A stretch of DNA of 64,000 nt from Bacteroidia bacterium (GTDB taxonomy: Bacteria > Bacteroidota > Bacteroidia > NS11-12g > UBA9320). Shown here one piece after another: positions 7,392-64,000 of the stretch (position 1 is the first letter of the stretch; each line of letters opens with the position of its first letter). The position numbers were made by a program, and so were the translations under genes. Below the pieces are notes generated by a model, which was not told where the DNA came from, ran no database searches, and saw nothing but the letters and a program-made list of their open reading frames with translations. The stretch covers positions 26,008 through 90,007 of the forward strand of contig CBFHGJ010000009.1 in NCBI GenBank assembly GCA_965655315.1, given 5' to 3'.

Positions 7392-7563
7392 TTTTGTTTA
7401 TGGAGTTGGCGGACTAATTGTTTTGTATTTTTTTTGGTTAGCCCTAAACTATTTTGGGGAGTGGTTAGAAGATAAAACTAATATGCAATTTTTATTAGGT
7501 TTTGTTCTCATAGGTTTGTTAGCAATTTTTTCATTGAGTTTATACGTTTGGTTAGTATTTTGA
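7372..7563 (+). CDS. hypothetical small membrane protein (two predicted TM helices)
   Basis: 63-aa ORF, ATG start, very hydrophobic; could be spurious. Confidence 0.25.
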   Translation: MEIIFNIFVYGVGGLIVLYFFWLALNYFGEWLEDKTNMQFLLGFVLIGLLAIFSLSLYVWLVF

Positions 7564-7804
7564 TTAATTAGTTAATGAATATAATCTGACGCTTCTTGTC
7601 CAACCAACATCAAACCATAGGGCTATCCCACTATTCTGAGCAAAGGCTATGGAAATGAAACCGATATTCTTAAAGGATAAGGGGGTGTTGAATATGAAAA
7701 ATAGTTCGGATTTTTTTAGGATTTATCTGTAAAACGATACCTAAATCGATACCCTGAGGCATAAAAAAAACCTACAATTATCTGTACAACAGTTAATTAC
7801 AGGT

Positions 7805-7979
7805 TTTAATGGGTAGGCTTGACTTACAATCTAACCAAAAAGTTTGCTATCGATGCAGGTTTTGGTCTCGTGTTTACTGAGGTTACATCGGATATAGCTG
7901 TTGGTTATGATGGAAATGATCGATTTAGAAATAAGAACTTGTTGGGATATTTAGGAGTCTCATACGGTTTTGGGAAGTA
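7805..7979 (+). pseudogene. C-terminal remnant of an outer-membrane beta-barrel protein gene
   Basis: Start-less frame translating VGLTYNLTKKFAIDAGFGLVFTEVTSDIAVGYDGNDRFRNKNLLGYLGVSYGFGK*; typical OMP C-terminal strands; no start codon, no N-terminal part. Confidence 0.45.
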
Positions 7980-8074
7980 ATTATTGCCAATGAAATAATT
8001 TAGAAAAGCTAGTCCTAAACGGCTAGCGTTTTTTATTTGATAATTCTCAGGTAACTAATACCTTCGTCTTCGAT

Positions 8075-9152
8075 ATGACTAGTGATCAGTTTAACGACAT
8101 TAAAGGCCGTACAGCTAAGCTGGCGGACTATCTTTGACGTAGAAAAGAATCTTGCTCTCATAGCAGATGAAGAGCAGCAAACGCACGATCCATCCTTCTG
8201 GGATAATCCAAAAAAAGCAGAAATACATCTCAGGAATATCAAGAAAAAGAAAATCTGGACTGATTCTTGGGTTGAAATCAATGCTGGAGTTGAAGACATA
8301 GAAGTGCTTCTTGAATTTAAAGAAATGGGTGAAGATGTGGATGAGGAAATTGAGACCAAGTATCAAGGTACACTTCAGAAGTTAGAGAACTTGGAATTTA
8401 AAAACATGCTTAGCGGAGAAGAGGATCAATTGGATGCAATTCTGGAAATCAATGCTGGAGCTGGAGGTACTGAGAGTAACGATTGGGCAGCTATGCTGAG
8501 CCGAATGTACACGATGTGGGGTCAGAATAATGGATATAAAGTCGAAGTTCTAGAGCAAGTCGATGGAGACGTTACAGGTATTAAGTCTATTTCCTTACAG
8601 TTTTCAGGAGATTTTGCTTTTGGTTATTTAAAAGGAGATAATGGTGTTCATAGATTGGTCAGAATAAGTCCTTTTGACAGCAGTAACAGGAGACATACGT
8701 CTTTCGCGTCAGCTTATATCTACCCTGTGGTAGATGATAGTATCGAGATTGATATTCCTTGGGGAGATATTGATATGCAGACTTCTCGAAGTGGTGGAGC
8801 AGGAGGTCAGAATGTAAATAAGGTGGAGACCAAAGTTCAGTTAACCCATAAACCGACAGGCATCATGGTGGTATGTTCTCAAGCCCGTTCTCAACTGGCT
8901 AACAAGGAAGAAGCCATGAAGATGCTTAAGTCTCAATTGTATGATATTGAGCTTCGTAAACAAACTGATGCTAGGGCCGAAATAGAAAATGGCAAGATGA
9001 AGATAGAGTGGGGAAGTCAAATAAGAAATTACGTTATGCATCCCTATAAATTGGTTAAGGACGTGCGAACAGGAGAGGAGACAAGTAATGTGCAAGCCGT
9101 GATGGATGGAGATTTAGAAGCTTTTCATAAGGCGTACTTGTTAGGACAGTAA
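8075..9152 (+). CDS. prfB: peptide chain release factor 2, with programmed +1 ribosomal frameshift (join 8075..8134, 8136..9152)
   Basis: ATG 8075 gives [20 protein letters not shown] then UGA; canonical shift site CUU UGA C at 8132-8138; +1 frame continues [15 protein letters not shown]... to TAA 9150-9152 and contains RF2 motifs (SPF-like region, GGQ in [16 protein letters not shown]). Confidence 0.95.
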
Positions 9153-10661: not shown

Positions 10662-11657
10662 CTACTTTACAATCTCCATGAGTTGATCTAACTTAGGCGT
10701 TAGGATAATCTCTATACGTCTATTCTGTGCTCTAGCTTCTTTTGTTTTAGCATCATTTATAGGTACGTATTTACTTCTGCCACTAGGTATAATCTTAATT
10801 GGATCCATTTTTCCTTCGGTGGTTAAGTATCTAACGACTGATGTAGCTCGCAGTACACTCAAATCCCAGTTATCTTGAATAGTAGTAGATTTCATTGGAA
10901 CGTCATCAGTATGCCCTTCTACCATAATATCAAAATCTTCGATGTCTTTAAGGCTCTCAGCCACCTTAAGAAGAGCATTTTTACCTTTCCAATCGATATC
11001 TGTTTTACCACTTTGGAACAAAAGGTTATTGTCTAAGGATACATATATCCTACCATCTTTTTCAACTACTGAAATTCCGCTGTTCTTGTAACCAATCAAA
11101 GATTCAGTAAGTTTATTCTTCAAATCACTGACTGCCTTTTCTTGAGCTGCGAGTTTTGATTTCAGTTCATTTACGGTTTTTTCACGTTCACGCAGTGATA
11201 TTTCTAAAGCATCAAGTTCTTTCTTTAGTTTATTAGTCTCATTCTCTTTTTCTATCAGGGTAGACTCTTTAGCAAATAGCTCACGTTTCTTCTCATCTAG
11301 TTTCTTATCTAACCTTTCAAGTTCATATCTCAGATCCTTTTTTGTGTTTTCATTACTGTTTAACAAGTTTTCATAGTTCTCATTCAGAATTTTGTACGAA
11401 CGTTCTACCTTGTCAAATTCAGCTTTTTGATCAGCACATTCCCTTTCTGCTTGTTCGTATTCTGCAGCAAGGTTTTTGTACCTAGTATTTAGATCTTCTA
11501 GTTCGCTATCACTAAATGACTTTAATCTCTCCATTTCTTGGTACTTACTGGCTAGGTCATCGTATTTAACCTGTAAATCTTCAAGTTTTTTTGCTGGTAC
11601 ACAGCCTACTATCACACTGATCAGAAGGACAGTTATGAGTTTATATTCTTTATTCAT
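10662..11657 (-). CDS. OmpA-family lipoprotein with long N-terminal coiled-coil
   Basis: 331 aa; lipoprotein signal (LISVIVGCVPAKK); 150-aa heptad-rich coiled coil; C-terminal OmpA/MotB peptidoglycan-binding domain (…TDDVPM…LSVLRATSVVRYL…NRRIEIIL). Confidence 0.8.
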   Translation of the reverse strand: MNKEYKLITVLLISVIVGCVPAKKLEDLQVKYDDLASKYQEMERLKSFSDSELEDLNTRYKNLAAEYEQAERECADQKAEFDKVERSYKILNENYENLLNSNENTKKDLRYELERLDKKLDEKKRELFAKESTLIEKENETNKLKKELDALEISLREREKTVNELKSKLAAQEKAVSDLKNKLTESLIGYKNSGISVVEKDGRIYVSLDNNLLFQSGKTDIDWKGKNALLKVAESLKDIEDFDIMVEGHTDDVPMKSTTIQDNWDLSVLRATSVVRYLTTEGKMDPIKIIPSGRSKYVPINDAKTKEARAQNRRIEIILTPKLDQLMEIVK

Positions 11658-20915: not shown

Positions 20916-20990
20916 GGTGGTTGTAGCTCAGTTGGTTAGAGCACCGGTTTGTGGTACCGGGGGTCGTGGGTTCGAGCCCCATCTTCCACC
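20916..20990 (+). tRNA. tRNA-His (anticodon GTG) with G-1
   Basis: gGTGGTTGTAGCTCAGTTGGTTAGAGCACCGGTTTGTGGTACCGGGGGTCGTGGGTTCGAGCCCCATCTTCCACC: anticodon loop TTGTGGT, extra 5' G pairing with discriminator C; note two T:T mismatches in the acceptor stem. Confidence 0.8.
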
Positions 20991-20993
20991 CAG

Positions 20994-21027
20994 AAAAGTC
21001 CGACTATTTCAGTCGGACTTTTTTTAT
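20994..21027 (+). terminator. rho-independent terminator after tRNA-His
   Basis: AAAGTCCGACT atttc AGTCGGACTTTTTTTAT. Confidence 0.85.
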
Positions 21028-21093
21028 TGATCATTTTTAGATCATCTCAAGTCAATTACTTATGGGCTATCATTTTTGTTAAATTTGCATCAA

Positions 21094-21548
21094 TGAAAAA
21101 TATAGTAATTCTCTCCATTATCTTTTTTGCGGTAGCTTGTAATTCAAGCGACAAGTCTCAAGAAACTGCTTCTGAATCTGAAGAAGTGATTGAAGCAGTA
21201 GAGGAAAATGCATCTACAAACGGCGTATCTTTTAATGGTTTGGAAGATGGTTCTACACTTTCTTCTCCGTTCTTATTAGAAATGGGAGTAGAAGGTATGA
21301 TAGTAAAGCCCAAAGGTGCACCAAGAGAAGGTTATGGTCATCATCATTTACTCATCAATGATGATTATGCTCCTGCAGGTACGGTAATTGTGGCGGATGA
21401 TACTCACATCCATTATGGAGGTGGACAAACATCTGATTCAATAGCTCTAGAGCCAGGGGAGTACAAGTTGACTTTACAGTTTGCTGATGGTATGCACGTA
21501 TCCTACGGTGAACAATGGGCTAAATCTATTAACGTTACCGTAGAGTAG
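21094..21548 (+). CDS. hypothetical lipoprotein (DUF4399-like, His-rich GYGHHHL motif)
   Basis: ATG 21094 gives MKNIVILSIIFFAVACNSSD lipoprotein signal; the longer listed ORFs (20818.., 20949..) run through the tRNA and are not credible. Confidence 0.6.
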
Positions 21549-21559
21549 ATTTTTGTCGT

Positions 21560-22618
21560 TTGTTTCCTTGGAGTAATCTAATGCTTGCAGGCGTGCGTAA
21601 AGCTGCATTTGCTCTTTGTTTCAGTTTACTCCTTCTTACTAAATTTGGTTTTGGTCAGAATACTAATTTCAAATCAAACATCCTTCTTTCTCAGGTATTT
21701 TCAGATTACAATGCTGTCCTATTAGACGGTGATCCTACACCATTTGATAGTAGTCTATCATTGACAAACAGATTAAGTTATCAAAGGAGTTACAATAATA
21801 GATGGGAAGGATATGCTGGGTTATCCAATGGTTTTAGACAGTATTACACGATTGAAAATGAAGACTATAATAAGGTGTACTCATTTGCAGTAGATGCTGG
21901 AATAAAATATGTGCTATTTGCTCAACCAAACAACAGATAGCTAAGGAGGTTTTCACCATTTTTATCTGCAGGCTACTACTTAGAATACTTACGCGGATTA
22001 AGAGAAACAGAAAACCAGCTGTATTTATCAAATGGCCAATATGGTTTGGGGTTTGTTTCAGAATTTTCTCCAAGGTTGGGATTGCAAAGCAGCGTAATAA
22101 TTACTCAGAAACTACAAGATGATTTTAATACATTCTTACAATACAGAGCTGGGCTCTATTTCAAAGTAGGTAAATCTCAAAGCACACCCATCGAAAATAT
22201 TGAGGAGATTGATAATCCAGTTGTTGAAGGAGTAATTGAACCTGAATATTTAGTCAACTTAAGAGATAGTATTGATCAGGTATCTCAATGATTTGACTCC
22301 TTAAACAGCTCTAATTTGACCAAGATAAAGAGGTTAGAGCAATTGAATAAAGTGCTGAAAGATTCGTTGTCTAGTAACGAAAAGCAATCGATTCAGAGAT
22401 ACTTTGTCGTCGTCTTTTCTTCCAAAAGCTTGGAATCCATCAATACATTTGAAAAACGAATCGCAAAAAAGAATTACAAAACCGTAGTCTTGGAAAATCA
22501 AGCTGCTGGAAATTATAGATTAGCCATCCCTGCTTGCGATGACTATAGCAAAGCGGCAGTCGTATTGAATCAGGTTAGAGATTTAGTCACTGCTATTGCG
22601 TGGTTACTTTATCAGTGA
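21560..22618 (+). pseudogene. single reading frame (~352 codons) interrupted by two in-frame stops: signal-peptide protein with C-terminal SPOR-like domain
   Basis: ORFs 21560-21940, 22046-22291 and 22316-22618 are all in the same frame; the intervening stretches are open; the only interruptions are TAG 21938-21940 and TGA 22289-22291; C-terminal part resembles SPOR (…YFVVVFSSKSLESINTFEKRIAKKNYKTVVLENQAAGNYRLAI…). Confidence 0.55.
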
Positions 22619-22730: not shown

Positions 22731-25565
22731 ATGAAACACATATCATTTTTATTTAACTTATTAATTTTAAGCATGTTAGCTACAGCTCAGAGCAATTTTA
22801 AGCTCGTAGAAAAGATAGAACCTCAAGAAGGTAAAGTAATCATACCTTATGAAAAGTACACCTTACCTGTAAATGACCTTACACTAATTATCCATGAAGA
22901 TCATTCAGATCCAATTGTACACGTACAAGTAGCATATCATGTAGGGAGTGCACGTGAAAGTGCTAGAAATAGTGGTTTCGCTCACTTTTTTGAGCATATG
23001 ATGTTTCAAGGTTCTGGAAATGTAGCGGATGAAGAACATTTTAAAATAATAAGTGAGGCAGGTGGTACCAATAATGCCTTTACTTCTTTCGATAAAACAG
23101 TTTATCACCAAACTGCACCTTCTAATCTTACAGAGACAATGCTTTGGTTAGAAGCAGATAGAATGGGAACTCATCTAGAAGGTTTTACTCAGGAAAAATT
23201 CGAAAATCAAAGAGATGCGGTTAAAAATGAAAAGCGTCAGCGTTATGATAACCAGCCTTATGGTATGGTAAGTGAAATATTATTTAAGACTATGTTTTAC
23301 GATCATCCTTATGAGTGGACTCCAATAGGATTCGTAGACGATTTAGACATAGCTACTTATGACGACTTAAAAAACTTCTTCTTAAGATGGTATGGTCCAA
23401 ATAACGCTACATTGGTAGTAGCTGGAGATGTGAACCCTGAAGAGGTGAAAATCTGGGCTGAGAAATACTTTGGAGGTATAGCTAAGTGCCCTGAAGTAAA
23501 AGATATGTATCCTAAAAAGCCTCTATTGACTAAAGACCGTTATGTGAATTCGACTGATAACATTTATGCTCCATTGACCATATTTACTTTCCCAACTGTA
23601 CCAGAATATCACAAAGATGAGGCGGCATTAGATATTTTAGCAGAGATATTAGGTGGTGGGAATAATTCAATACTTTACAAAAACTTAACTAAAGAAGAAT
23701 TAGCTCTTCAAGCTGGTGCTGGTCATTCTGCTCTTGAGTTGGCTGGTGTATTGCAGGTGCAAGTAGTTACTAAACCTGCAATGGCTGGAGGTCTTACTTT
23801 CAAAGAAACTGAGGATAAAATAAGAGCCTCTCTAGCAGAGTTTGAAACAAGAGGAGTTACTGATGAAGATATGGGTATTGTTAAGTCTAGAGTATTGACT
23901 TCAACTTACGGTGCTCTTACTAGTGTACAATCTAAGGCTTTGACATTGAGTCAGTTTGATATGATGAAAGATGATAGTTATAATCTTCAAGATGAGATTG
24001 ATAGATATAATGCGGTAACCAAAGAAGATATAGTAAGGGTATATAATAAGTATATAAAAAATAGGAAGGCAGTAATTCTTAGGGTAGAAAGAGAAGCAAA
24101 AAAGGATGAGGATGACGATACACCTAAGAGTATTAACCCAAGAGCAGATCAGCCTAAGAAAACTGATAAGCAGTATGAAGGTCTATCGTATACACCACCA
24201 AAGGACAATTTTGACAGATCAGAACGTCCTGTTACACCTAAAGCGAAAGCATTGACTCTTCCAGAGTTCTATGAAACTAAATTTGATAATGGGTTGAAAG
24301 TAATTGGTACCAAGAGTTCTGAAGCTCCTTTGGTATATTTCTACATAGAAATGGAAGGTGGACATCTCCTGTCAGCTGATAAAAAAGTACGAACAGGTAC
24401 AGCTATGATGACTTCGTCTATGATGGGTGAAGGAACTTCTAAGCTGACTACTGAAGAGTTTTCAAGAGAACTTGATAAGTTAGGTAGTAGCATTAGATTT
24501 AATAGCGGTACGATGTCGAGTTCAGTATTTGTAAGCACTCTTGCGGAGAATGTAGATGCGACATTAGCACTACTAAAAGATGCTTTGTTTGAACCAAGAT
24601 TTGATGAGAAGGACTTCAAGCGAATCAAAGATCAGATAATAGAAGGATTACAAAATCAAAAGTCTAGTCCATCTGTAATGGCTTCTAAAGCTTGGAATAA
24701 AATAATGTATGAGGGTACAATTTTAGAGCAGTACTATTACGGTGATTTCAAGTCATTGAATAAAATAAGTCTAGATGATGTAAAATCATTCTACAAGACA
24801 TATTACTCTCCAAATGTGAGTACGTTAGTAGTTTCTGGAGATATCTCTAAAGAAGATGCCTTAAGTAAGTTGTCATTTCTAAAAGAATGGGAAAACACTA
24901 ATGTTACGGTTCCTACTATTCCAGCATTAAAAATGCCAGAGAAAACTACCGTATATCTTGTAGATAAGCCATATGCTGCTCAAAGTACTGTATATGCTGG
25001 TCACCCAGGTCCTAAGTTTGACTACAACGGAGACTACTTCAAAGCAGGAGTTATGAACTTTGCCTTAGGTGGAGCTTTCAACAGTAGAATCAATCTTAAT
25101 CTTAGAGAAGATAAAGGTTATACGTATGGAGCAAGATCTAGATTTAGCGGAAACAAGCAGTATGGAGTATATAGATTTAGCTCTGAGATTAAGAAAGAAG
25201 CAACTGACAGTGCTATCCGTGAATTAATGAAGGAAGTAAAAGGATTTGCTACTAAGGGAATCACTGAAGAAGAATTAGCATTCACTAAGAGTTCTATAAC
25301 ATTAAGTGAGGCATTGGACTACGAAACGCCATTTGATAAGCTTAATTTCTTAAGCCGAATAGCGGAGAATGAGTTACCAAAGGATTTCACTACACAACAA
25401 GCAGCAATGATTAATGAAATGACTGCGAGTGATGTAAATGCTTTGGCTTCTAAGCTTTTAAAGCCTGAGAATATGGTCATCATAGTCGTAGGTCACGCTT
25501 ATAAAATAAGAGAAGGGTTAAACAACCTTGGCTATGGTAAGATCGAAGAAATTACAGTAGACTAG
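22731..25565 (+). CDS. M16-family zinc peptidase (insulinase-like), tandem two-unit form
   Basis: 944 aa; signal peptide; inverted zinc motif HFFEHMMFQGS (HxxEH) near N-terminus; second inactive M16 half. Confidence 0.9.
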   Translation: MKHISFLFNLLILSMLATAQSNFKLVEKIEPQEGKVIIPYEKYTLPVNDLTLIIHEDHSDPIVHVQVAYHVGSARESARNSGFAHFFEHMMFQGSGNVADEEHFKIISEAGGTNNAFTSFDKTVYHQTAPSNLTETMLWLEADRMGTHLEGFTQEKFENQRDAVKNEKRQRYDNQPYGMVSEILFKTMFYDHPYEWTPIGFVDDLDIATYDDLKNFFLRWYGPNNATLVVAGDVNPEEVKIWAEKYFGGIAKCPEVKDMYPKKPLLTKDRYVNSTDNIYAPLTIFTFPTVPEYHKDEAALDILAEILGGGNNSILYKNLTKEELALQAGAGHSALELAGVLQVQVVTKPAMAGGLTFKETEDKIRASLAEFETRGVTDEDMGIVKSRVLTSTYGALTSVQSKALTLSQFDMMKDDSYNLQDEIDRYNAVTKEDIVRVYNKYIKNRKAVILRVEREAKKDEDDDTPKSINPRADQPKKTDKQYEGLSYTPPKDNFDRSERPVTPKAKALTLPEFYETKFDNGLKVIGTKSSEAPLVYFYIEMEGGHLLSADKKVRTGTAMMTSSMMGEGTSKLTTEEFSRELDKLGSSIRFNSGTMSSSVFVSTLAENVDATLALLKDALFEPRFDEKDFKRIKDQIIEGLQNQKSSPSVMASKAWNKIMYEGTILEQYYYGDFKSLNKISLDDVKSFYKTYYSPNVSTLVVSGDISKEDALSKLSFLKEWENTNVTVPTIPALKMPEKTTVYLVDKPYAAQSTVYAGHPGPKFDYNGDYFKAGVMNFALGGAFNSRINLNLREDKGYTYGARSRFSGNKQYGVYRFSSEIKKEATDSAIRELMKEVKGFATKGITEEELAFTKSSITLSEALDYETPFDKLNFLSRIAENELPKDFTTQQAAMINEMTASDVNALASKLLKPENMVIIVVGHAYKIREGLNNLGYGKIEEITVD

Positions 25566-50934: not shown

Positions 50935-51509
50935 TGAAGCGACTTGAGATATGGGCTTCTGGTGGTGGTACAAATGCAGATGCGATTTTCAAATACTTTA
51001 AAAACCATAAAGATATTTCTGTAGTACATCTAGGATGTAACAGAATCAAAGCTAGAGCATTTGACGTAGCAAAAAAGCACTCGGTTAACACTACATACTG
51101 GAATAAAGATAAATGGAATGCGACTCATGTATTAGATCAACTTAACAAAAGAAACATTGATTTTATCATTCTAGCCGGGTTTTTAAAACTAGTCCCATCC
51201 GAGGTGACAAAAGCATATAGAGGAAGAATACTAAATATACATCCAAGCTTATTGCCAAAATTTGGTGGCATAAACATGTATGGCAATAACGTTCACCAGG
51301 CTGTACTAAACTCAAAAGATGATCAAACTGGAATTACCATACACGAAGTGAATGAAGAGTTTGATAAAGGTAAACCAATTGCACAATTCAGTGCAGGATT
51401 AGTCCCTGGAGTCGAAACAATAGACTCTATAAAATCAAAAATTCAGCAGCTTGAGCACCAAAACTTTGCACCAATAATAGAATCTTGGGTTAAGGCAAAG
51501 TCTATTTAG
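50934..51509 (+). CDS. purN: phosphoribosylglycinamide formyltransferase
   Basis: 191 aa; KRLEIWASGGGTNADAIF, ILAGFLKLVP, NIHPSLLPKFGG (formyl-transferase HxSLLP motif). Confidence 0.85.
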   Translation: MKRLEIWASGGGTNADAIFKYFKNHKDISVVHLGCNRIKARAFDVAKKHSVNTTYWNKDKWNATHVLDQLNKRNIDFIILAGFLKLVPSEVTKAYRGRILNIHPSLLPKFGGINMYGNNVHQAVLNSKDDQTGITIHEVNEEFDKGKPIAQFSAGLVPGVETIDSIKSKIQQLEHQNFAPIIESWVKAKSI

Positions 51510-53433
51510 TTACTTTAAACTCTGTCCTTCTGTTGATCGCTCTTCCTTGTTCAGTGCTATTCGATTTAATAGGATTATTGTCACCATAGCCTTGATATGT
51601 TAGTCGTGTAGAAGATACACCATTCTTAACTAGGTAGTTATAAACAGACTTAGCTCGATTAGTAGACAATTCAATATTATTAGTTTTATTACCAACATTA
51701 TCTGTATGACCACCTATTTCTATTGAGATGTCTGGATTGATTTTCATAAAATCTATCAGTTTTTGCAGCTCATTAATGCTATTTTCTTTCAACTCGCATT
51801 TGTCAGTATCAAAAAATACATTCTTGAGTACCACACTTTTACCGATTTTTACTTTTTTCAAATCAATTATAATCTCAAATGGTTTGTCTGTATCCACATT
51901 AGGCATATCAAAATACTCCGAATGGAATAAGTAACCGTCTTTATCTATTGTGAGGGCATATTTTTGATCAGCTTTTAGTGGTACTAAGAACATACCGTCT
52001 GTTTGATCTGCGTATGTGTTTGTGCTTACACCACCAGATTGAGGTGTGAGAATCACACTGGCTGCTAGTGGTCTTTTTGTATCAGCATCTCTTATAAATC
52101 CACGAGCGTAGCTAACTCTTTGGGCTTGCAATTTTGTCGGTAATTGAAAAGTGTAAATGTCTAAGCCTCCTTTTCCATCAGGCATTTTGTCACTGCTATA
52201 TAATGCTGTTTTTCCATCTCTTGCTACTATCATATTCCAATCGTAACCAGATGTATTTATTGGATGTCCTAAATTGACGGGAGACCCCCAATTACCTTCT
52301 GGCCCTAATCGTGATAAAAAAAGGTCACTTTTGCCCATTCCAGGATGCCCTTCAGAACTAAAGTATAACGTATTGTTATCTGAATGTATAAATGGAAATT
52401 GCTCGTCAAATGGAGTATTTATCTCTGGACCTAAGTTTATAGGTTCTTCCCAACCTGTTTCACTAAAATTGGCCTTCCACAGATCTGTTCCCCCATAGCC
52501 ACCTGGTCTGTCACTAGTGAAATACAAGGTCTTACCATTTGAGGCGATAGAAGGTTGTGATTCCCAGTGCCTAGTGTTAATGGGGGCTTGAAGATTCATT
52601 GGTTCTGACCATTCCCCATCGTTATCTATAGTTAGCCAGATATCACATTGTCCTTTTCCTCCGCGTCTACTGCAGGACGTGAAAAATATATAATGTCTGT
52701 CTGATGATATACTAAATGCTCCTTCATTATCTGAAGTATTGATTGGCCTACCTAGGTTCTTGATTGGATTCCAACTTCCATCGGTATTTCGAGTGGCAAA
52801 ATAAATATCCTCATTAGGTCGACTATCTCTTAAATCACCCGTCCTTCTTGTGATGTACATAGTTTGCTCATCAATAGCAAAAGCAGGAGAATACTCTTGT
52901 TCATTGGTATTAATTGATGACCCGATATTAATTGGATTAATATCCATCGGGTTAGCGATAGCTTCACGCATGAAAGAAATATTTTGAAGGTTTCTTACCG
53001 CTATAGAAGTATTTTTATCTTTTGTCTTATTGTACTTTAGAAAAGTTCTGAAGTAGTACTCTGCACTATCTATCTGCTCATTTGAAATGTATATGTTACC
53101 AAGGGAATATAGAGCGTATAGATGGTCTGATTTCAACTCAAGTAATTGTCTGTAAACTGAAACTGCTCTATCTGATGCACCAGCCTTTTGATAGGTGTGT
53201 GCCAGGGCATCATAAGCATCTAAAAAACCGGGTGACTTCTTTATTGCAGCTTTGAATGAACTAACTGCATCATTATATTCTCCTAAACTTTGTTGTTGCA
53301 ATCCTTTTGTGAAAAGTGCTTGAGACTTTTTCGATGGCTCATTTTGAGCTGTTGCTTTTTTTGTTTGACCACAAGCTGAAAAGATCAAAAAGGCAGTTGC
53401 AATTAAAAGTGCATTTTTACACATTTCTATCAT
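51502..53433 (-). CDS. OmpA-family protein with N-terminal TPR repeats and TolB-like beta-propeller repeats
   Basis: 643 aa; signal peptide; TPR segment; repeated WD40-like/TolB blades (…DGKTLYFTSDRPGGYGGTDLW…); C-terminal OmpA domain (…NRRTEFKV). Confidence 0.75.
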   Translation of the reverse strand: MIEMCKNALLIATAFLIFSACGQTKKATAQNEPSKKSQALFTKGLQQQSLGEYNDAVSSFKAAIKKSPGFLDAYDALAHTYQKAGASDRAVSVYRQLLELKSDHLYALYSLGNIYISNEQIDSAEYYFRTFLKYNKTKDKNTSIAVRNLQNISFMREAIANPMDINPINIGSSINTNEQEYSPAFAIDEQTMYITRRTGDLRDSRPNEDIYFATRNTDGSWNPIKNLGRPINTSDNEGAFSISSDRHYIFFTSCSRRGGKGQCDIWLTIDNDGEWSEPMNLQAPINTRHWESQPSIASNGKTLYFTSDRPGGYGGTDLWKANFSETGWEEPINLGPEINTPFDEQFPFIHSDNNTLYFSSEGHPGMGKSDLFLSRLGPEGNWGSPVNLGHPINTSGYDWNMIVARDGKTALYSSDKMPDGKGGLDIYTFQLPTKLQAQRVSYARGFIRDADTKRPLAASVILTPQSGGVSTNTYADQTDGMFLVPLKADQKYALTIDKDGYLFHSEYFDMPNVDTDKPFEIIIDLKKVKIGKSVVLKNVFFDTDKCELKENSINELQKLIDFMKINPDISIEIGGHTDNVGNKTNNIELSTNRAKSVYNYLVKNGVSSTRLTYQGYGDNNPIKSNSTEQGRAINRRTEFKVTK

Positions 53434-62074: not shown

Positions 62075-62201
62075 ACCCAATAGACACTTTCTGTAAATTA
62101 TCCCCATTATAGTACGTTAAATGTGGGTATTTTGGGGTCTTCAAGACGATTTGATTTAGATATATAAAATAACTTGCAGGCCAATTTAAACCTTGTAATT
62201 A

Positions 62202-64000
62202 ATGAATTCGGAAAACGAAAAAATTATTCCAATTAACATAGAAGAGGAGATGAAAACAGCATACATTGATTATTCAATGTCTGTCATTGTATCAAGAGCC
62301 CTCCCAGATGTTAGAGATGGTCTTAAACCTGTGCATAGACGAGTACTTTATGGTATGACTGAGTTAGGTTTAGCAAGTAACAGAGCCCACAAAAAATCAG
62401 CTAGAATAGTAGGAGAGGTACTTGGTAAGTATCACCCCCATGGAGATACATCTGTTTACGACACTATGGTGCGTATGGCTCAAGATTGGAGTCTTCGCTA
62501 CCCGATGGTAGATGGACAAGGAAACTTCGGTAGTATAGATGGTGATCCACCTGCAGCAATGAGGTATACGGAAGCACGTATGCGTAAGCTAGCTGAGGAG
62601 ATGTTATCTGATATAGACAAGGACACCGTAGATTTCAGACCAAACTTTGATGATAGTTTAAGTGAACCAACAGTATTGCCGGCTCGAATTCCAAGTTTAT
62701 TGGTAAATGGAGCTTCCGGTATAGCAGTAGGAATGGCCACTAATATGGCTCCACATAATCTGACTGAAGTGATAGATGGAACAGTAGCTTACATAGAGGA
62801 CAATGAAATCTCAATTGAGGGGCTCATGGAATATGTTAAAGCTCCTGACTTCCCAACAGGAGGAATTATCTATGGTACAGAAGGTGTAAAGTCTGCTTTT
62901 GAAACTGGCAAGGGTAGGATTGTAATGCGCGGAAAGGCTGAGTTTGATGTAACTAAAACTGGAAAGGAGCAAATTATTATTACTGAAGTTCCTTATCAGG
63001 TTAGCCCTTCTCAAATTATTGTGAAAGCGGTTGACCTTGTAAACGATAAAGTAATCGAAGGTATCAGTGAAGTTAGAGATGAAAGTGGTAGACAAGGTCT
63101 CAGAATAGTTTTCGATTTAAAACGGGATGCTATTCCTAATATAGTACTCAATAAACTGTACAAATACACTCCGCTTCAAACTAGCTTCAGTGTCAATAAC
63201 ATAGCATTGGTAAATGGTCGTCCTCAAATGTTAAATCTTAAGGATATGATTCATCATTATGTTGATCATAGACACGAGGTTGTAATTAGACGTACAGAGT
63301 ATTTACTAAAGGAGGCTGAGAAGAGAGCACATATCTTAGAAGGACTAATTATAGCATCTGATAATATAGATGAGGTAATTGCATTAATAAGATCATCTAA
63401 AAATGCTGAAGAAGCTCGAAATAAACTAATCAAACGTTTCGAATTATCTGAAATACAAGCTAAAGCTATTGTTGAAATGAGATTACGTCAACTGACTGGT
63501 CTTGAACAAGATAAGCTGCGAGCTGAGTATGATGAGTTGATGAAAACCATCTCAGATTTAAAAGAAATTTTGGCTGACAAAGCTAGGAGGATGCAAATCA
63601 TCAAAGATGAGCTACTAGAAATTAGAGAAAAATATGGTGATGACAGAAGAACTGCCATAGAGTTTGATGCTGGGGAAATCAATATAGAAGACCTGATAGC
63701 CAATGAGGAAATGGTAGTGACTATTTCTAGTATGGGTTACATAAAGAGAACTCCACTCACTGAGTATAAGCAGCAGAGTAGGGGTGGTGTAGGCAATAAA
63801 GGTGTGAAGCACAGGGATAAAGACTTTGTGGAACACTTATTCGTTACCATGACGCATAATTATATACTCTTATTCACAGATCAAGGTAGATGTTTCTGGA
63901 TGAAGGTATATGAAATTCCAGAAGGAGGTAAAGTATCTCAAGGTCGAGCCATTCAAAACCTCATCAATATACCATCAGAGGATTCGGTAAGAGCTTTTGT
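62202..64000 (+). CDS. gyrA: DNA gyrase subunit A, N-terminal ~600 aa (3' end beyond window)
   Basis: ATG 62202: [52 protein letters not shown]…; active-site region [10 protein letters not shown] (catalytic Tyr); frame open to window end. Confidence 0.95.

Follow-up and report, generated by a model that had tools for sequence, protein, structure and literature searches.

Between positions 21,560 and 22,618 of the 64,000-nucleotide stretch of Bacteroidia DNA analysed here (the window), three small open reading frames (21560-21940, 22046-22291 and 22316-22618) follow one another in a single frame, which raises the question of whether they are separate cistrons, one gene read through its stop codons, one intact gene with sequencing errors, or the remains of a gene that has been lost. 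A frame check agrees with the preliminary description: ahead of the terminal TGA at 22616-22618, only one TAG and one TGA (Table 1) interrupt the frame, and both differ by a C-to-T transition from an open codon. At the base composition of the window, 24.8 stops are expected in 352 codons and the probability of two or fewer is 2.5e-9; in 20 shuffles of the sequence, not one of 1.26 million 352-codon windows contained two stops or fewer. Because the frame is open so far beyond chance, the locus was certainly once a single gene. The open frame of about 352 codons that had been proposed therefore stands as a frame and is revised in length, since its likely true start, ATG 21581, which is also the sole Met codon of the entire frame, gives 345 codons. 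No other gap between long ORFs in the window is as large as the 1,182-bp stretch that contains the locus, and ORFs of at least 120 amino acids cover 86.5% of the sequence.

Table 1. Coordinates, in window positions, of the disrupted gene, its parts and its neighbours
Feature	Position	Strand	Remarks
DUF4399 protein, intact upstream neighbour	21093..21548	+	Pfam DUF4399, E 8.6e-30; synteny anchor
Whole disrupted frame	21581..22618	+	345 codons and terminal TGA; outer-membrane barrel/SPOR-like pseudogene (very probable)
Signal peptide	21581..21655	+	MLAGVRKAAFALCFSLLLLTKFGFG, then Gln26; read from the sequence, with a predicted cleavage site
8-stranded outer-membrane β-barrel, remains	21656..22165	+	approximate boundaries; P0002 model, Foldseek
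First nonsense mutation, CAG (Gln120) to TAG	21938..21940	+	loop between barrel strands 4 and 5; the older lesion
AGGAGG	21944..21949	+	coding; Arg122-Arg123 within CTA AGG AGG (Leu-Arg-Arg)
Long helical (coiled-coil-like) linker, remains	22190..22375	+	approximate; helix 218-274 of P0002 mapped by alignment
Second nonsense mutation, CGA (Arg237) to TGA	22289..22291	+	within linker helix; the younger lesion
SPOR-like C-terminal domain, remains	22397..22615	+	Pfam SPOR below threshold, family-level support
M16 family peptidase, intact downstream neighbour	22731..25565	+	Pfam Peptidase_M16, M16_C; synteny anchor

Using the conceptual product as query, a protein search returned a cluster of near-identical proteins and one distant intact homologue. 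A member of the cluster, P0001, is 96% identical to the conceptual product, with Gln and Arg, respectively, at the positions of the window's TAG and TGA; the DNA of its contig reads CAG and CGA at the two codons and carries two lesions of its own, AAA having become TAA at codon 7 and one base pair being missing from codon 57. The remaining proteins of the cluster are of mixed lengths. The allele set comprises the window and 15 further copies from NCBI, JGI, ENA and Logan assemblies, representing at least seven sequencing projects, with 98.0-100% identity of the further copies to the window over 1,121 bp; a search for additional alleles in metagenome contigs returned only L014, already in the set. 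None of the 16 copies, which fall into 10 haplotypes, is intact. They exhibit eight disruption patterns built from nine distinct lesions, six nonsense changes and three one-base deletions, which are, by codon number, TAA7, TAG38, del57, TAG/TAA120, TAA236, TGA237, TAA269, del284 and del295. The majority consensus of the 16 alleles is nevertheless a clean 345-codon ORF. Ten of the 16 copies have CAG at codon 120; the window, L003 and L004 have TAG there, and L005, L006 and L016 have TAA. At codon 237, CGA occurs in 14 of 16, the TAG120 carrier L003 included, and TGA in the window and L004 only. The alleles that have CAG and CGA at these codons are 98-99.6% identical to the window at the nucleotide level. 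By pattern, the window and L004 combine TAG120 with TGA237; L003 has TAG120 alone; L005, L006 and L016 combine TAA120 with TAA236, which adjoins the window's codon 237; L007-L010 have TAA269, to which L015 adds TAG38; L011 has the 1-bp deletion at codon 284; L001 and L014 have TAA7 and the deletion at codon 57; and L012 and L013 have TAA7 and the deletion at codon 295. A young pseudogene, which had been named as one of several explanations, is strongly supported by the CAG and CGA codons of the sister alleles and by the finding that the sampled alleles are all broken, each differently.

A neighbour-joining tree built from the flanks, where divergence is 0.2-0.6%, was too poorly resolved to order the haplotype groups A (window), B (L011), C (TAA269) and D (TAA120), and for that reason intragenic informative sites (21721 and 21649) were used. 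These group the haplotypes as ((A,D),(B,C)),E, where E denotes the carriers of TAA7. On this grouping the ancestor was intact, and four lineages received separate first hits, namely TAG120, del284, TAA269 and TAA7. The lesions are nested, L003 having TAG120 only and the window adding TGA237, and in the window lineage TAG120 came first and TGA237 later. The D clade converted its TAG120 to TAA, a change with which decoding specific to TAG is incompatible.

The fate of this gene differs from that of its neighbours. The DUF4399 gene has no disabling change across 14 alleles and the M16 peptidase gene no nonsense change or indel across nine; on the same contigs, nine disabling events in the 1,035 bp of the target compare with none in 5,073 bp of flanking genes (M16 peptidase, 2,655 bp; DUF4399, 453 bp; a TPR protein, 1,965 bp). 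An apparent difference in the M16 start in L005 was traced to a gene-calling artefact, as the start-codon DNA and its surroundings are identical in four of the four copies compared. The target has a pN/pS ratio of 0.56, compared with 0.09 in M16 and 0.23 in DUF4399; a value of 0.56 rather than about 1 fits a recent inactivation, with part of the polymorphism predating the loss, the counts being small. Against the 2.8 nonsense changes that the observed mutation spectrum would yield under neutrality, six were found (P = 0.05, based on 37 substitutions polarised by consensus). Selection against stops is absent, and selection for stops is at most weakly hinted at by these numbers.

Searching the target protein against the GTDB representative genomes found no relative, and the window species is evidently absent from those representatives. 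Relatives were fetched through the M16 peptidase as an anchor, yielding MAGs in which this protein is at most 80% identical. The DUF4399 gene is found at the same position in L002, L017, L019 and L020, and L002 contains a syntenic intact homologue of 361 amino acids. An intact 411-aa orthologue is present in L018 (M16 identity 64%), and an intact 365-aa distant homologue in L019 (76%; hhalign probability 95.9%, E 5e-9). The gene is absent from L017 (75%), where DUF4399 lies 114 bp from M16. The nearest relative in the collection, L020 (80%; chromosome CP121331.1, a MAG labelled Sphingobacteriales bacterium), has a homologue that a single in-frame TAG interrupts; this stop sits in the barrel loop of the window's TAG120, at a distance of two residues. 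The possibility that it marks a conserved recoding site was rejected, as P0071, from that species, has TGG (Trp) at the codon in question and most of the cluster's 28 proteins reach full length (344-389 aa). Because the database holds intact alleles for the L020 species, their lack in the window species is meaningful.

An exhaustive profile search delimits a family of 61 representative clusters at E <= 1e-3, of which about 40 full-length representatives are single proteins of 330-512 amino acids. These homologues run uninterrupted across both stop positions, the opposite of relatives with three independent genes, the arrangement that the preliminary description had named as speaking against a single gene. 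Fourteen members align across both stops; in this alignment a variable loop holds codon 120 and a variable linker codon 237. The full-length family is covered by no curated Pfam or NCBIfam model. The architecture of the ancestral protein was approached through an AlphaFold2 model of the intact homologue P0002 (mean pLDDT 81.8). The model consists of a signal helix (residues 2-16), eight β-strands within residues 26-188, a helix at 218-274 and a β-α-β-β-α-β domain at 291-360, in which strands 291-298, 318-322, 328-335 and 357-360 and helices 300-312 and 338-352 are modelled at a pLDDT of about 90. Mapped onto it, TAG120 lies between strands 4 and 5 and TGA237 inside the long helix. The Ala-Gln pair at the signal peptide cleavage site is conserved in the family alignment. 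In Foldseek searches the N-terminal domain matches the Ail, OmpX, OmpA, OprF, NspA and OmpW barrels (E 3.4e-7 to 2.5e-4). The Pfam model OMP_b-brl (PF13505; cut-off 28.7 bits) is matched at E < 0.01 by 5 of 26 family members; it has no match in the window copy and scores below its cut-off in the positional homologues of L019 (27.8 bits) and L020 (26.0 bits). For the C-terminal domain, the window copy reaches 16.7 bits (E 0.0097) against Pfam SPOR (PF05036), short of the gathering cut-off of 21 bits, and the L018 orthologue reaches 21.1 bits; the model is matched at E < 0.01 by 6 of 26 family members, with a best E-value of 6e-6, and the family profile matches the SPOR structure of CwlC (1x60) at E 0.007. 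The linker of some family members contains TSP3-like repeats. There is moderate support for the family as a divergent SPOR-like group, of which the window copy by itself fails the cut-off. The signal peptide and SPOR domain proposed earlier hold in substance, the SPOR assignment with less strength than had been given to it, at the level of the family. By analogy with OmpA-type proteins, the role of the intact protein would have been to tether the outer membrane to the peptidoglycan of the cell wall.

Taken together, we consider it very probable that the locus is a pseudogene of a single gene for a 345-aa envelope protein, arising by two successive C-to-T nonsense mutations. The ancestral product carried a signal peptide at its N-terminus, then an 8-stranded outer-membrane β-barrel and a long periplasmic helix, and ended in a SPOR-like peptidoglycan-binding domain. 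The change of CAG120 to TAG occurred first and is common to sister strains, and that of CGA237 to TGA followed, and is seen in this haplotype only. Translation from the sole ATG would stop at codon 120 and release a 119-aa fragment, which, with a signal peptide but only half of the eight barrel strands, could not form a barrel. The downstream pieces have no Met codon, usable ribosome-binding arrangement or export signal. Function has, we infer, been lost. Since all sampled alleles are independently inactivated and the relatives include a deletion and a strain-specific nonsense change, the species as a whole seems able to do without the gene, or to fare better without it.

Whether it was dispensable or disadvantageous bears on a variant of the pseudogene explanation that differs only in the evolutionary force. 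If the loss was adaptive and not neutral decay, inactivation of the surface-exposed barrel, for example as a phage receptor or as a target of hosts or predators, would have been favoured, and knock-outs would have swept repeatedly. Consistent with this, four primary lineages of a species whose divergence does not exceed about 2% have their own first hits, and the short B and C branches each have a disabling hit among only about two events. The zero count of intact alleles in 10 haplotypes points in the same direction, since the mostly full-length alleles of the L020 species indicate that the database is not hiding intact ones. The twofold excess of nonsense changes over the neutral expectation would also agree, but it is a borderline statistic on a few dozen consensus-polarised substitutions, and C-to-T bias accounts for five of the six nonsense events. 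Moreover, neutral decay following one ancestral loss of need would give the same pattern, and other OmpA-like peptidoglycan-binding outer-membrane proteins encoded in the window make redundancy plausible. Adaptive loss is accordingly a tentative and rather unlikely reading. The broader proposition, that the same barrel/SPOR tether was knocked out repeatedly under selection, in at least four lineages here, by deletion in a sister species and by its own TAG in a strain of another species, is doubtful too, and we hold it slightly more loosely.

Programmed readthrough or recoding, whether by a suppressor tRNA, by selenocysteine at UGA or by pyrrolysine at UAG, would deliver the full-length 345-aa protein, and the two stops are indeed the sole interruptions of an otherwise clean frame. 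That cleanness, in the window haplotype, is what a young pseudogene is expected to show and is also predicted by readthrough. The stops are not conserved, being CAG and CGA in sisters and TAA at codon 120 in one clade, with frameshifts and other stops elsewhere; at the homologous positions the residues found are Gln and Arg and neither Cys nor Lys-like, and homologues have variable loop and linker residues at both positions. The 54 long ORFs of the window end in TAA (29), TAG (20) and TGA (5), so that both TAG and TGA terminate neighbouring genes, and RF2 (prfB) and RF3 (prfC) are both encoded in the window; an alternative genetic code was rejected on these grounds, taken from the 64 kb of the window. 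Because prfB carries the classic autoregulatory +1 frameshift site CTT TGA C (8126-8138), UGA is read as a stop. Within the 64-kb window there is no suppressor tRNA, the tRNAs being Arg-ACG, His-GTG and Arg-TCG, and an Rfam scan of the window returned tRNAs only, with no SECIS or other stimulatory RNA. Structure in the 70 nt after each stop does not exceed that of shuffled sequences (z = -0.68 and +1.21), and nothing resembling a SECIS element was seen. Regulated readthrough, which had been raised as a possible explanation, is contradicted by the allele series and is very improbable; low-level natural readthrough of UAG and UGA would be compatible with the sequence.

Sequencing or assembly errors at both stops, in a gene that is really intact, would account for a sequence that is only two single-base differences away from an open frame. 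The TAG at codon 120 recurs, however, in the independently assembled contigs JGI 3300050343 and Logan ERR15116864, and TAA stands at this codon in ENA and Logan contigs, by which error is excluded for the TAG. For the TGA it is unlikely: TGA237 is found again in L004 (Logan ERR15116864), which is 100% identical to the window over 1,121 bp and might derive from the same sample. Two substitution errors, both at first positions of codons and both creating stops, would be an improbable coincidence, and every other strain is also broken, elsewhere in the gene. Error at both positions thus deserves very little credence as an explanation of the locus.

The weakest alternative, that the locus is read as two or three separate cistrons with the AGGAGG as a Shine-Dalgarno (SD) sequence for reinitiation after the TAG, retains next to no probability. 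The motif that prompted it is real: CTA AGG AGG (CTAAGGAGG) follows the TAG directly, at 21941-21949, so that a perfect AGGAGG begins 4 nt past the stop. The SD role raised for it did not survive. The window contains 24 copies of AGGAGG versus 21.3 +/- 4.6 expected, which is chance frequency, and since the motif is unchanged in alleles with CAG at codon 120, where it encodes the same Arg-Arg, it predates the stop. No start codon is located 5-10 nt past the AGGAGG; it takes 82 nt to meet any ATG, GTG or TTG downstream, and 96 nt to reach the first one in frame, TTG 22046. In Bacteroidota, moreover, ribosomes make little use of SD pairing. The second and third pieces have neither a Met codon nor a signal peptide, though the two domains function extracytoplasmically; the stop at codon 120 splits the barrel after four of its eight strands; and the homologues are never split.

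With the pseudogene as the preferred explanation, the locus can be compared with known systems. As in other young split-ORF pseudogenes, single transitions at CAG, CAA or CGA codons make in-frame stops, and the familiar accompaniments are present: uninterrupted close alleles or orthologues, relaxed constraint, further lesions in sisters and complete loss in relatives. What is unusual is that 10 of 10 haplotypes have been inactivated, by different lesions, within a surrounding genome that is compact and intact. The in-frame TGA within prfB of the same window (programmed +1 frameshift, 8075-8138) provides an instructive counterpart, as prfB is nevertheless expressed; its CTT TGA C motif is conserved and universal among orthologues, whereas the stops of 21581-22618 have no such motif and are absent from sister alleles.

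The putative ancestral protein resembles OmpA-type tethers such as E. coli OmpA and P. aeruginosa OprF in having a signal peptide, an 8-stranded barrel, a periplasmic linker and a C-terminal wall-binding module, and OmpA, OprF, OmpX and Ail are Foldseek matches of the ancestral-type barrel at E 3e-7 to 1e-5. The TSP3-like linker repeats of some family members also have a parallel in the OmpA-family structure 5wtl. Differences are that the wall module is SPOR-like (β-α-β-β-α-β) and not OmpA_C (PF00691), that a single long helix of about 55 residues forms the linker, and that sequence similarity to OmpA is not detectable in the family. With the SPOR proteins (FtsN, DamX, DedD and RlpA of E. coli, and CwlC of B. 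subtilis) the family shares a C-terminal domain of about 75 amino acids with SPOR topology, weak but repeated PF05036 matches and the match to CwlC 1x60. Known SPOR proteins are anchored in the inner membrane, or are lipoproteins or amidases; here, by contrast, the domain is joined with an integral barrel of the outer membrane, and its binding to denuded glycan strands is putative.

For the study of translation the locus has little bearing, and it should not be counted as a candidate site of recoding or reinitiation. For annotation it is a clean case, the three small ORFs being best merged into one entry that is flagged as a pseudogene. It also points to a small uncurated group of Bacteroidota proteins (about 60 representative clusters) combining an 8-stranded barrel, a long helix and a SPOR-like domain. 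The species-wide parallel inactivation constitutes a small natural experiment on the dispensability or the cost of such a tether. Should the repeated knock-outs prove to have been selected, the protein would count as a burden to its bearer, perhaps by serving as a phage receptor or as a target of hosts or grazers, and the alleles would represent a natural loss-of-function series for a previously undescribed family of outer-membrane-to-peptidoglycan tethers.

In two related MAGs, the locus corresponding to the interrupted barrel/SPOR-like gene was found broken by a nonsense codon of its own in one and emptied of the gene in the other. In the MAG labelled Sphingobacteriales bacterium (L020; CP121331.1, 3729-4913), one in-frame TAG breaks the positional homologue within 'DIFRI*RIQPY'. 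This stop is a strain-specific TGG-to-TAG change, full-length members of the same 90% cluster having Trp at the position. In another related MAG (L017; JAHEGS010000001.1, 4485-5001), the barrel/SPOR-like gene is absent altogether, and only 114 bp lie between the end of the DUF4399 gene and the M16 peptidase gene.

Within the species itself, the sister allele L015, which belongs to the group with TAA at codon 269, has two synonymous variants (window-equivalent 21613 and 21631) in common with the divergent group with TAA at codon 7. This pattern suggests either recombination between the lineages or homoplasy. Another sister allele, L001, lies on a 1.8-kb contig (UZXB01029930.1) of NCBI assembly GCA_900632135.1, which comprises tens of thousands of contigs.

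Other features of the window are listed in the table below.

Features of the window that accompany the interrupted gene
Feature	Window position	Strand	Remarks
prfB (release factor 2)	8075-9152	+	classic programmed +1 frameshift
MotB/OmpA-like and PorE / CHU_0125-like envelope proteins (one each)	10662-11657 and 51502-53433	both -	OmpA-like peptidoglycan-binding C-terminal domains
tRNA-His(GTG)	20917-20991	+	overlaps mechanical ORF 20949-21548, reported as inside ORF
gyrA	62199-64000	+	recognised N-terminus; incomplete, extends past window end

ATG 21093, rather than the start of the mechanical ORF that overlaps the tRNA, is the most likely start of the real DUF4399 gene; the product from this ATG is 151 aa, the same as that predicted by gene callers in several sister contigs. 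Four AGGAGG matches at 62858-63928 are coding sequence within gyrA.

The window that holds the pseudogene also contains a true recoding site, the prfB frameshift: ORF0, starting at ATG 8075, reaches an in-frame TGA (8135-8137) inside TAT CTT TGA C, and the main ORF runs on in the +1 frame to 9152. The plus-strand stretch 5' of prfB (7560-7980) is ORF-poor. An open stretch within it (7810-7977, +) ends in ...LLGYLGVSYGFGK, a sequence similar to the final strands of an outer-membrane barrel, and upstream of that stretch stops are abundant in all frames; a further envelope-protein gene may have decayed at 7560-7980.

Both genes for envelope proteins with OmpA-like domains are intact, and the barrel/SPOR-like gene might be dispensable through redundancy with these two proteins.
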